Assembly (NCBI GenBank): GCA_028693815.1
Contig: JAQUUP010000002.1
Coordinates: 74,807-138,806, forward strand
Length of the DNA stretch: 64,000 nucleotides
DNA from: Candidatus Omnitrophota bacterium
GTDB lineage: Bacteria > Omnitrophota > Gorgyraeia > Zapsychrales > Aceulaceae
Direction: 5' to 3'
How positions within the stretch are numbered: position 1 is the stretch's first letter; every line of letters starts with the position of its first letter. The notes under the pieces were generated by a model. The model was not told the DNA's origin. It saw nothing but the letters and a program-made list of their open reading frames with translations, and searched no databases. Shown here piece by piece: positions 61,125 through 63,387 of this stretch. Made by a program: the position numbers and the translations under genes.

Positions 61125-61394
61125 AATTAGTATCTAGCATTCTGTATTTAGTGTATAGTATTTAAATGAAGTCAAAATTTATAGAGTGTAAATGATATAA
61201 ATTTTATAACTGAATTCATCTCGTGCCTGAAGGATGTCGAGGTCGAATAAAATTGTTCTTTATAAAAATTTGGTGGATAAAGGAGAAGTGCGTTGGGCTA
61301 ATTTTCGAATTTTCGAGAAAATTGTCTAAGCGTTTTCCTTAATATTCCATCGAGAAGAAACGCGGGGTAGAGCAGCCCGGTAGCTCGTCAGGCT

Positions 61395-62028
61395 CAATAA
61401 TGGATACAAAGCTCAAATCAGACATTGCAGAATCTGCGGTTATTTTGAAGCTCCTCGAAAAAGGGTTTAATGTTCTAAAGCCTTTTGGTGATCGTCTTGC
61501 CTATGATCTTGCTATAGATCAAGAAGGACGATTAATTCGCATTCAAGTTAAAAGTGCATGGTATAGCAAAGATAAGAAAATGCATTTAGTGGATGCAAGG
61601 AGAACAAAAACAAACCGACGCAAAATGATTCGAAAGAAATATTCGAATCAAGATTTTGATTTTGCAATAATCTATCTTAGCGATAAGCAGGTTTTTTATA
61701 TTATGCCTGTAGAGGTTTTTAATAACTATGCTAGTAGCATTAGTTTTGTCGAGGAAGGTAAGCGGCAACGACCTCCAAAGTCAGCTAAATTTAGAGAGAG
61801 ATGGGATTTGTTGTCCTTTTGTGGGCTGCTAGTCCAGTAATGGATTAGTGAAACCTGTCAAATTCGGTGAAACCTTAACTGGCAATACCGAGCCAAGCCT
61901 AGCAGGAATGCTAGGAAGGTGTAGAGACTAGATGGCAGGCATCCTAACTCATCGAGAAGGATGAAGGTATAGTCCAGACCACAAACCTTGACCTAATGTT
62001 AGGGGCGGCGAAAGCCGTAGTTGGCAAG
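61395..62028 (+). mobile_element. Group I self-splicing intron (IC3-like) in the anticodon loop of tRNA-fMet, carrying an ORF.
   Basis: 3' part 61853..62028 contains GUCAAAUUCGGUGAAACCUUAA, CCGAGCCAAGC and GAAGGUGUAGAGACUAGAUGGCAGGCAUCCUAA, near-identical to the core P3-P7 strings of the Azoarcus tRNA-Ile and Anabaena tRNA-Leu introns. Ends in G; upstream exon ends in U. Confidence 0.85.
61400..61840 (+). CDS. Intron-encoded ORF of 146 aa, a putative PD-(D/E)xK homing endonuclease (I-Ssp6803I-like).
   Basis: YDLAID ... RIQVKS nuclease-like motifs. Same host gene as the PD-(D/E)xK homing endonuclease of the cyanobacterial tRNA-fMet intron. Starts 5 nt inside the intron. Confidence 0.55.
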   Translation: MDTKLKSDIAESAVILKLLEKGFNVLKPFGDRLAYDLAIDQEGRLIRIQVKSAWYSKDKKMHLVDARRTKTNRRKMIRKKYSNQDFDFAIIYLSDKQVFYIMPVEVFNNYASSISFVEEGKRQRPPKSAKFRERWDLLSFCGLLVQ

Positions 62029-62075
62029 CATAACCTGAAGGTCGCTGGTTCAAATCCAGTCCCCGCAACCATGTC

Positions 62076-62108
62076 AAAAAGGGTCACCCAAAAGGGTGAC
62101 CCTTTTTG
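62076..62108. terminator. Bidirectional intrinsic terminator aaaaa-gggtcaccc-aaaa-gggtgaccc-ttttt.
   Basis: Perfect 9-bp stem flanked by an A-run and a T-run. Confidence 0.8.
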
Positions 62109-62204
62109 TACATAATTGAGGATGATTTGAACCTCGGCGACCGACACTGTGCCAATAGGCACAGAGAGGAAGTGCCGGGCCAATAGGGCCGGCTTCAAAT
62201 CCAG

Positions 62205-62327
62205 AATAAGTTAGAATAAGTTAAATAAGTTAGACCGTTTCTACTTAATAAGTTAGACCGTTTCTACTTTACCCCTAGCCTTATATTAATAAGTTAGACC
62301 GTTTCTACTTTACCCCTAGCCTTATAT
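62205..62327 (+). repeat. Iteron-like direct repeats. AATAAGTTAG x3 at about 10-nt period, then three copies of AATAAGTTAGACCGTTTCTACTT, the last two extended to a 41-nt unit (...TACCCCTAGCCTTATAT).
   Basis: Copies at 62205, 62215, 62224; 62224..62246, 62247..62287, 62288..62327. Confidence 0.8.
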
Positions 62328-62353
62328 AAACTTACATTAGAAGTGTCCTGTTA

Positions 62354-62382
62354 TTGACACATTCTTTTTCCTCATCTAAAAT
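62354..62382 (+). promoter_or_regulatory. Sigma70 promoter TTGACA-17-TAAAAT placing the TSS at or near the ATG at 62389, so a probable leaderless mRNA. No SD present.
   Basis: Hexamers and spacing read directly. Sequence between the -10 and the ATG is aTACCTCC, which is anti-SD-like. Confidence 0.5.
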
Positions 62383-62388
62383 ACCTCC

Positions 62389-63387
62389 ATGCCCAAGACG
62401 CAAATAATACCTCAAACCTACAAAACCCTCCTAACCCATTTACAAAAACAGCTTAAAATTTCCCAGAATAGTTTCGAGCGACAATTGGTCATTACTTATT
62501 GGAATATCGGCAAAGGCATTGATGTTTATCTAAAAAAGAATCCTCAAAATTATCTCACCGCGCTTACGTGTAAGCTTTCCAAAGATTTGAATATTCACCA
62601 GCGTACTCTTCAGCAGTGCCATCAACTTTTTAGTGTGTTTCCATCGCTTGATTTTAAAATACCGATTAGCTGGTCGCATTACAGGGCTTTGTTGTCTTTA
62701 GACTCTGATAAAAAAAGAGCGTACTGGCAAAAGCGCATTGTTAAAGAAGATATTAATTTTAAAGAATTGCTCGGATTTTTAAAACAAGATAAGCTTGATT
62801 CCAAAACACCTAAAGGCAAATTGGCAAAACCTGTGCGAGGAGTTTTGTATCATTATCGGCTAATGAAAGTCAGCTATGTGGATAAGAGAAAAGCCAGCAT
62901 TGTTGTTGATTGCGGATTTGAGAATCGCATTGTCCCGCCCAAGCATGATGGGCTGCTTGAGAACAAGCGCATTATTGTTTCTTTTAAGGAAAATGATTAC
63001 TACAGGATAAAATACACCAAAGATGTTTTAAAAGATAATCTTTATACTTTTAAGGCGCATGTTGAAAGAGTTGTTGACGGCGATACGCTTGTGTGCAATG
63101 TGGATTGCGGATTTGGGATCTGGTCAAGACAGAAGCTTCGCCTAAAAGGCATCGATGCGCCGGAAATGGATACTGTTATGGGCGTGAAAGCAAAAAGCTT
63201 TGTCGAAGATGTTTTAAGGAATTGTGTTTTTATTATTGTCAAAACATCGAAGTCAGATAAATACGATCGTTATCTCGCGGATATATTTTTTAAGGAAGGC
63301 GAGAGCGATGCAGGCGCTGTAGCAAAGGATGGCGAGTATTTAAATCAGCTCTTGATGGATAAGGGTTTGGCAGAAATTTATAGGTGA
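62389..63387 (+). CDS. Fusion nuclease: DUF1016 (YhcG-type) N-terminal domain plus a duplicated staphylococcal-nuclease (SNase/thermonuclease)-like C-terminal domain.
   Basis: N-terminal QLVITYWNIGKGI (the DUF1016 LVxxYWxIGxxI pattern); C-terminal VVDGDTLVCNVDCGFGIWSRQKLRLKGIDAPE ... DRYLADIF (the SNase DGDT...R...GIDAPE pattern). Confidence 0.55.
   Translation: MPKTQIIPQTYKTLLTHLQKQLKISQNSFERQLVITYWNIGKGIDVYLKKNPQNYLTALTCKLSKDLNIHQRTLQQCHQLFSVFPSLDFKIPISWSHYRALLSLDSDKKRAYWQKRIVKEDINFKELLGFLKQDKLDSKTPKGKLAKPVRGVLYHYRLMKVSYVDKRKASIVVDCGFENRIVPPKHDGLLENKRIIVSFKENDYYRIKYTKDVLKDNLYTFKAHVERVVDGDTLVCNVDCGFGIWSRQKLRLKGIDAPEMDTVMGVKAKSFVEDVLRNCVFIIVKTSKSDKYDRYLADIFFKEGESDAGAVAKDGEYLNQLLMDKGLAEIYR

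Follow-up and report, generated by a model that had tools for sequence, protein, structure and literature searches.

Homing endonucleases of the I-Ssp6803I type cleave the intron-less tRNA-fMet gene and act as tetramers, and, to our knowledge, no other family of PD-(D/E)xK homing endonucleases has been characterised structurally. The founding enzyme reportedly resides in a group I intron of the tRNA-fMet gene of Synechocystis sp. PCC 6803, a system said to have been described by Biniszkiewicz et al. 1994, Bonocora & Shub 2001 and Zhao et al. 2007 (PDB 2OST). Here we describe its counterpart in a 64-kb stretch of DNA (hereafter the window; contig JAQUUP010000002.1), given with coordinates and strand, from a metagenome-assembled genome (MAG) of Candidatus Omnitrophota. 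Our analysis makes it very probable that the tRNA-fMet gene of this bacterium is interrupted, after U33 and before C34, by an IC3-type, self-splicing group I intron that is mobile, or was until very recently, and that carries an I-Ssp6803I-family gene in the loop of its first helix, P1.

The Synechocystis intron is the founding case, with a length of 655 nt and an open reading frame (ORF) of 150 amino acids (aa) (PMC1995217), and in a 2012 review the close homologues of its enzyme are placed ‘generally in cyanobacteria’ (PMC3384342). A survey of the same year described a patchy distribution of the superfamily, suggestive of horizontal transfer (PMC3424549). Most recently, Nakagawa et al. 2026 (PMC13011429) examined 4,934 complete genomes, in which tRNA-fMet position 33/34 features as a well-characterised insertion site. 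Their table lists ORF-less IC3 introns at this site in Bacteroidota, Desulfobacterota, Nitrospirota and one Omnitrophota genome, and PF11645 genes within tRNA-fMet introns in two cyanobacteria only, and they conclude that tRNA introns with endonuclease genes are very rare, seldom transferred horizontally and limited in their mobility (PMC13011429). No description of an endonuclease-bearing tRNA-fMet intron in Omnitrophota was found in the literature searched.

By every feature tested, the element in the window belongs with the Synechocystis tRNA-fMet intron and I-Ssp6803I, and is thus a known element in a new host. The two share the host gene, the 33/34 insertion site (per PMC13011429) and the endonuclease family (PF11645, with 50.7% identity to 2OST), and are of nearly equal size (634 versus 655 nt for the intron, 146 versus 150 aa for the ORF). 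They differ in that the host is a member of Omnitrophota, not Cyanobacteria, and in that the anticodon stem of the window’s target has A29:U41 where that of Synechocystis has G29:C41, from which it follows that the preferred site of the enzyme probably differs at two symmetric positions. The IC3 ribozyme in tRNA-Ile of Azoarcus sp. BH72 presumably shares the small IC3 architecture, nearly identical core strings and GNRA-capped P2 and P9 hairpins, and presumably differs in its host tRNA and insertion position, in being ORF-less and in having a much longer P5. Within the phylum, the intron of GCF_004102945.1 (Nakagawa et al. 2026) resides in the same gene, at the same 33/34 site and in the same subgroup, and its core is 76.6% identical. 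That intron, however, is only 252 nt long and lacks an endonuclease gene; its P1 loop has about 3 nt, where the window has a 441-nt ORF.

A split initiator tRNA gene

The tRNA-fMet gene, with anticodon CAU, occupies positions 61361-62071 of the forward strand, its halves and the insert being read directly from the sequence. The 5′ exon (61361-61394; CGCGGGGTAGAGCAGCCCGGTAGCTCGTCAGGCT) covers tRNA positions 1-33, from C1 through A11:U24 and the 5′ strand of the anticodon stem to C32 and U33, and is identical at 34/34 positions to the 5′ half of the uninterrupted tRNA-fMet of the relatives L086-L095. The 3′ exon (62029-62071; CATAACCTGAAGGTCGCTGGTTCAAATCCAGTCCCCGCAACCA) covers positions 34-76, with the anticodon, the T arm, A72 and an encoded CCA, and matches the intron-less alleles at 40/43 positions. 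Between them lies the 634-nt intron (61395-62028), which begins CAAUAAUG and ends with its omega-G at 62028. Because intron and 3′ exon both begin with CA, junctions one or two bases away are formally conceivable; the U33|C34 placement alone yields an exon U at position −1 together with an intron-terminal G.

The split gene was missed both by ARAGORN and by the Rfam tRNA model. Once the exons are ligated in silico, ARAGORN calls a tRNA-Met(cat), and folding at minimum energy gives a cloverleaf, in which C1 stands opposite A72 and A11 pairs with U24. Bacterial initiator tRNAs usually have three consecutive G:C pairs in the anticodon stem (29-31:39-41). Here only G30:C40 and G31:C39 are present, and pair 29:41 is A:U (61387-61391/62034-62038). 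The same A29:U41 pair occurs in the intron-less alleles of relatives and at many Omnitrophota loci, often accompanied by A28, and is therefore a trait of the lineage and not damage to the copy in the window. Neither ARAGORN nor Rfam finds another tRNA-fMet in the 64 kb, where the only called tRNAs are tRNA-Phe and tRNA-Thr, near 36.5 kb.

An earlier note, made from the letters of the window, had proposed much of this arrangement: a non-cyanobacterial diderm host, a tRNA gene with the initiator hallmarks C1-A72 and A11:U24, a 634-nt insert between U33 and C34 that follows an exon U and ends in G, and no second intact tRNA-fMet in the window. Each of these points stands, with U61394 and G62028 bordering the insert and with the host being Candidatus Omnitrophota, of Gram-negative type. 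The further claim of the note, that splicing would be essential, reaches beyond what a window of 64 kb can support. The source is a metagenome-assembled genome, and an assembly chimera might conceivably have joined a foreign intron to the tRNA. Such an artefact is nonetheless exceedingly improbable: the insert sits exactly between the two exon halves, synteny with relatives on the upstream side reaches as far as the exon, and independent assemblies of over 55 other genomes and metagenomes show the same layout.

A conserved ribozyme fold

The 3′ part of the insert matches the Rfam group I intron model (RF00028, Intron_gpI) over its full length (model positions 1-253, window 61805-62004) with 70.9 bits, above the gathering score of 50, and an E value of 5.7e-16. 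The three core strings that the earlier note had quoted, GTCAAATTCGGTGAAACC, CCGAGCCAAGC and GAAGGTGTAGAGACTAGATGGCA, are all present in the insert. Helices were placed by comparison with the Rfam model and by eye and were then tested on relatives. Specifically, 55 homologous introns were aligned with MAFFT, the exon tail and intron start of each being joined to the portion that begins with its guide sequence and extends to the 3′ exon, and the 3′ segments being anchored on the P3/J3-4/P4 motif. The intron is assignable to subgroup IC3 by homology to an intron so classified by Nakagawa et al. 2026.

Across 62 pairs and 55 sequences, standard base pairs occupy 96.3% of the cells, and at 38 of the 62 pairs both sides have changed. 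When the 3′ partner was moved by one to three columns, standard pairing fell to 29-46%, as measured with a helix set that also held P8a and for which the observed value was 94.2%. With partners shuffled within columns, pairing averaged 82.2% and peaked at 83.2%, and in none of 500 shuffles was the observed pairing reached. The covariation is carried by P2, P3, P6a, P8 and P9; P4, P6 and P7 neither support nor contradict the fold because they hardly vary. P1 through P9 thus fold, with covariation across the 55 introns, a result that could have gone against the proposal of the earlier note and instead agrees with it. The minimum free energy fold of a mini-intron from which the ORF was deleted also recovers most helices, including both hairpins of the P9 domain.

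The 5′ strand of P1 (61391-61396) consists of exon G30, G31, C32 and U33 and intron C+1 and A+2, with the 5′ splice site after U61394. It pairs with the internal guide sequence UGGGCU (61822-61827), and G61824 pairs with U33. This U61394·G61824 wobble is invariant (55/55), while the adjoining pairs are maintained through GC/GU changes; the terminal G is likewise found in 55/55 introns and the initial C in 53/55. P2 (61829-61848) is an 8-bp hairpin with compensatory changes at every pair among the 55 introns; its GUAA tetraloop, which is of the GNRA type in those relatives inspected, contains the UAA stop codon of the ORF (61838-61840). The catalytic core (61854-61974), with which the Rfam alignment agrees, comprises P3 (61854-59/61934-39; compensatory changes), P4 (61863-69/61886-92; nearly invariant), a P5 of 2 bp (61873-74/61881-82), P6 and P6a (61893-61919; P6 nearly invariant, P6a with compensatory changes), P7 (61926-30/61970-74; nearly invariant) and P8 (61940-61963; compensatory changes). 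The P9 domain (61979-62024) is made up of a closing helix (61979-82/62020-24), P9a (61986-62004) and P9b (62005-62018, with a GAAA loop), and P9, P9a and P9b all show compensatory changes.

The embedded endonuclease gene

The ORF in the P1 loop (61400-61840, forward strand) starts 5 nt into the intron and encodes a 146-aa protein of the I-Ssp6803I/PDDEXK_5 family. It matches PF11645 over profile positions 1-137 of 138 (E 9e-44) and chain A of 2OST, which is I-Ssp6803I, with an E value of 1e-44 and without gaps over 138 residues, so the PD-(D/E)xK-like, I-Ssp6803I-like character attributed to it in the earlier note is well founded. Among 18 homologues, the window’s included, E11, D31, D36, Q49 and K51 are invariant along with other residues, and the same residues are aligned in 2OST; by analogy, we assume these five to have catalytic roles. 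The identical protein is deposited at NCBI as MDD3374349.1, under the name ‘group I intron-associated PD-(D/E)XK endonuclease [Candidatus Omnitrophota bacterium]’, and the family of the ORF has therefore already been recognised in annotation; no NCBIfam model matches it. Against the three closest relatives, dN/dS over the whole ORF is 0.05, 0.11 and 0.07, and the protein is therefore under purifying selection.

At its 3′ end, the ORF overlaps with both the guide sequence and the 5′ strand of P2. We infer from this arrangement that translation and ribozyme folding would compete on one and the same molecule. The overlap also lends some substance to the notion that the intron splices but that its ORF is inactive as a homing endonuclease, or is kept for another role such as an aid to RNA folding: part of its sequence is constrained by RNA structure, and the ORF is truncated in three relatives (L045, L050 and L074). 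We consider this distinctly unlikely. Only the last ~19 nt lie within RNA helices, while the dN/dS of 0.05-0.11 holds across the whole ORF; all family-invariant residues are kept, at 51% identity to a characterised enzyme; and empty target sites exist in relatives.

Two side observations concern the ORF in these and other homologous introns. In L045, L050 and L074 (ORF starts at 1501) the introns are otherwise complete, and the ORFs run for 31, 109 and 53 codons, respectively, to the first stop, as could result from decay of the gene once it was fixed or from sequencing or assembly frameshifts. In many relatives (L003, L008, L010, L022, L023, L033, L049 and others), the ORF is 160-188 codons long and extends deep into the ribozyme core, its stop codon lying 56-150 nt before the 3′ splice site; coding and ribozyme sequences overlap there far more than in the window.

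Empty sites in syntenic relatives

What is new in our evidence, as read from the sequences of related contigs, is an intron-less tRNA-fMet gene at the same spot in syntenic Omnitrophota relatives. The enolase gene adjacent to the tRNA (MDD3374347.1, on the same 146-kb contig) was used to retrieve 16 contigs of relatives, which share with the window the gene order radical-SAM protein, hypothetical protein, FtsH-like protease, enolase and DivIC, at 81% DNA identity over 4.8 kb. In 14 of the 16, the syntenic position holds a tRNA-Met(cat) that ARAGORN calls as uninterrupted; the remaining two contigs stop short of the tRNA or break off inside it. The sequence around the insertion point in these intron-less alleles equals the exon junction of the window. 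Alleles of the L086 type have a 5′ half identical to the 5′ exon of the window, and those of the L096 type differ from it at one D-loop base; the intron-less 3′ half differs at three positions of the T arm, far from the junction. The L086 allele reads GGTAGCTCGTCAGGCTCATAACCTGAAGGTCGC across the junction, the Synechocystis-type site is TCGGGCTCATAACCCGA, and the candidate target of the ORF product is GCTCGTCAGGCTCATAACCTGAAGGTC. On its sequence, the uninterrupted syntenic tRNA-fMet gene is an empty homing site.

Other relatives carry the intron together with the endonuclease gene (L102-L107). The closest homologues of the endonuclease all reside in the same kind of intron (P0002, P0003 and P0005, with 88%, 84% and 75% identity), and in the contig of P0005 (L106) the intron locus again lies downstream of enolase and DivIC. 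The presence of the element is therefore patchy within one clade. For this pattern, a gain of the intron in the lineage of the window appears more economical than repeated precise loss. Nearest neighbours of the endonuclease belong mostly to the same phylum, and some cross-phylum pairs reach 75-80% identity, none exceeding 90%, which fits old or occasional transfer and not a recent sweep.

An opposite course of events can be envisioned, in which the intron and its endonuclease gene are ancestral in the clade and inherited vertically, the intron-less alleles of relatives being products of precise loss. The arrangement of enolase, DivIC and tRNA-fMet with intron and endonuclease gene in the more distant L106 speaks for this course, as does the kinship of the endonucleases, which mostly follows host phylum with no cross-phylum pair above about 80%; moreover, ORF-less and decayed-ORF versions exist, as would be expected under degeneration and loss. 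We nevertheless regard ancestral presence with loss as unlikely, while granting it real weight. Two intron-less sub-lineages, of the L086 and L096 types, would each require a perfectly precise deletion; an intact endonuclease under purifying selection is hard to keep without ongoing homing into empty sites; and the cross-phylum neighbours, at 75-80%, are as close as those within the phylum. The lateral spread that the earlier note had proposed hence receives its support for mobility from the intron-less syntenic alleles, and not from the supposed rarity of such introns on which the note had based it.

A proposed cycle of splicing and homing

If the intron is indeed mobile, its cycle can be outlined as follows. 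The tRNA gene and the intron would form one transcription unit, from a conserved upstream region to a terminator that starts 4 nt after the CCA. In the precursor RNA, exon G30-U33 and intron C+1/A+2 would pair with UGGGCU (61822-61827) across a 425-nt loop containing the ORF, with the U33·G61824 wobble marking the 5′ splice site, where an external guanosine would attack; the terminal G62028 would then take the P7 site, and the joined exons would give a normal tRNA-fMet. That the intron splices is suggested by the conservation of its fold and by the intact exons. The endonuclease, presumably translated from the unspliced RNA or from the excised intron, would, judging from its homology, cut intron-less tRNA-fMet genes around the anticodon loop, and repair of the break would provide the cleaved allele with a copy of both the intron and its endonuclease gene. 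A carrier would be immune to its own enzyme because the intron splits the target site.

About 100 nt upstream of the tRNA are conserved with relatives: positions 61295-61400 are matched at 86% by the sequence that precedes the intron-less tRNA-fMet genes, and alignment with L102/L103 extends from 61250. The conserved region (61250-61360, forward strand) probably contains the promoter of the tRNA transcription unit, although conservation does not locate it. Downstream, two perfectly complementary 15-nt arms around a 4-nt loop, with a run of T behind them (62075-62108, forward strand), constitute an intrinsic terminator, which was overlooked by a terminator scan and detected by a repeat search and from the sequence itself; a permissive Rfam search of 62060-62420 gave sub-threshold matches to this hairpin only.

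Several observations weigh against a mobile, self-splicing element as outlined above. The intron-less relatives are only ~81% identical in DNA, and the gain or loss need therefore not be recent, its direction being a matter of parsimony. A scan for consensus sigma-70 promoters upstream of the tRNA gave no convincing site and no more hits than expected by chance. No strong Shine-Dalgarno sequence precedes the ATG, where the AGG of the anticodon stem would be the only such element. The taxon labels of the loci in other groups, given below, are those of MAGs and may include binning errors. Finally, the P5 of the copy in the window is unusually short (2 bp), and its P9 has a 1-nt bulge.

The minimal P5 and bulged P9, together with a view of the genome limited to 64 kb, might be taken to mean that the split gene is a dead relic, unable to splice, and that its function is served by a second, intact initiator tRNA from another part of the genome. 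This is very improbable given that every helix of the window’s copy is fully paired, that its Rfam score falls within the range of related introns (53.6-81 bits) and that neither exon is damaged, both being nearly identical to alleles that look functional; the short CCTTAACTGG P5, moreover, recurs in other copies, such as L023. A working intron with its own homing endonuclease thus remains the reading that we favour.

Distribution across phyla

Homologues of the endonuclease form 533 clusters in the protein database, and relatives are encoded in 378 species-representative genomes, scanned at one genome per species and mostly non-cyanobacterial. Among the best 80 loci of these 378 genomes, for which the layout was examined, 57 share that of the window, with the intron and endonuclease gene inside tRNA-fMet: the start codon comes 2-22 nt after the 5′ half of the tRNA, and an intron of 621-695 nt separates this half from the 3′ half. 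Most of these loci are from Omnitrophota, and the others are labelled Deltaproteobacteria/Desulfobacterota, Bacteroidota, Margulisiibacteriota, Melainabacteria and Patescibacteria. Together with the data of Nakagawa et al. 2026 (PMC13011429), these counts make outdated the statement of the earlier note that such introns are rare outside cyanobacteria. The split initiator tRNA genes are missed by standard finders (here ARAGORN), and Omnitrophota MAGs may therefore seem to be devoid of tRNA-fMet.

Two other interpretations of these loci were considered and set aside. The Bacteroidota loci are not the tRNA-Arg(UCU) introns with PD-(D/E)xK genes reported by Nakagawa et al., as their exon halves are those of tRNA-fMet. 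A phage origin of the window’s copy is not supported either: only five viral contigs encode relatives of the endonuclease, the closest being 59% identical, and none of the five has the intron.

Free-standing relatives of the endonuclease

Collaborative homing denotes the convergence of a free-standing endonuclease and an ORF-less intron on one site, with known examples in phage protein-coding genes and not in bacterial tRNA genes (Hausner et al. 2014, PMC3984707). A similar arrangement is found in 19 of the best 80 loci (L002, L014, L020, L025, L027, L034, L044, L048, L056, L057, L059, L064, L066, L067, L068, L070, L071, L072 and L078; matches start at 1501), where the endonuclease gene stands free beside an upstream tRNA-fMet with an ORF-less intron of ~200-360 nt, confirmed by Rfam in 14 of the 16 loci tested. 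The window, in contrast, represents the composite end state, in which the intron encloses the gene. The free-standing gene starts 55-1200 nt past the 3′ end of the tRNA; a terminator hairpin separates the two in all eight loci read, and L002 has a clear AAAGGAG ribosome-binding site. The set includes the cultured Arcicella rosea and A. gelida as well as a cyanobacterium. From its layout, the pairing of a free-standing gene with an ORF-less intron looks like a collaborative-homing precursor of the composite intron.

In L072 (993-2002), the tRNA-fMet has a 217-nt intron (5′ half 993-1029, 3′ half from 1247), the endonuclease gene follows at 1501-1905 and a second copy of the tRNA 3′ half lies at 1960; the target sequence is thus partly duplicated around the free-standing gene. 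Three IMG/VR viral contigs (L081 1501-2000, L082 1501-1995 and L083 1501-1997) encode a free-standing homologue, 50-59% identical, that ends just upstream of an uninterrupted tRNA-Met(CAT), which in L083 lies within an array of eight tRNA genes. The anticodon stems of these viral tRNAs are altered, as in GTGACGCT-CAT-AACGTTA of L081 and L082, and the alterations might confer resistance to cleavage.

The endonuclease family accordingly occurs in three states: free beside an uninterrupted phage tRNA-Met, free downstream of a tRNA-fMet with an ORF-less intron, and embedded in the P1 loop. That endonuclease-bearing tRNA-fMet introns, far from being a rarity of cyanobacteria, are common in Omnitrophota and still actively homing there, that they occur in seven or more further phylum-level groups, and that the three states of one family form a series in the assembly of composite introns, is a proposition on which we find ourselves evenly divided. 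If true, the series would be a natural record of how a composite mobile intron is assembled, by collaborative homing followed by invasion. It would also contradict the conclusion drawn recently from complete genomes, namely that endonuclease-encoding tRNA introns are very rare and transfer is infrequent: the MAG data, in which intact copies under purifying selection number in the dozens and come mainly from Omnitrophota, and which also show empty syntenic sites, point to ongoing homing. The element itself is textbook; the broader pattern of many intact copies in uncultured phyla, empty sites and free-standing enzymes beside tRNA-Met appears to us of moderate interest. In addition, the natural pair of filled and empty sites would provide a ready substrate for a second member of the I-Ssp6803I family, with a target that differs from that of Synechocystis at two symmetric positions.

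Downstream of the tRNA gene

Synteny with relatives ends directly after the tRNA-fMet terminator. The variable stretch that follows (62109-62400) contains two perfect 41-nt direct repeats and a partial third (62222-62326), together with fragments that resemble the T arm, at 62124-62133 (the reverse complement of GGTTCAAATC) and at 62191-62204 (identical to 62046-62059 at 12/14 positions). In two relatives (L096/L097 7837-8272), a phage-type integrase gene lies 2.6 kb downstream of the same tRNA. The region downstream of the tRNA may, from these features, be an integration hot spot with remnants of att sites. Within the variable region, a 332-aa ORF (62389-63387, forward strand) encodes a DUF1016 N-terminal domain (E 2e-9) together with a domain resembling staphylococcal nuclease (E 5e-8); ahead of it lies a promoter-like site close to the consensus (62354-62382, 11/12 matches).

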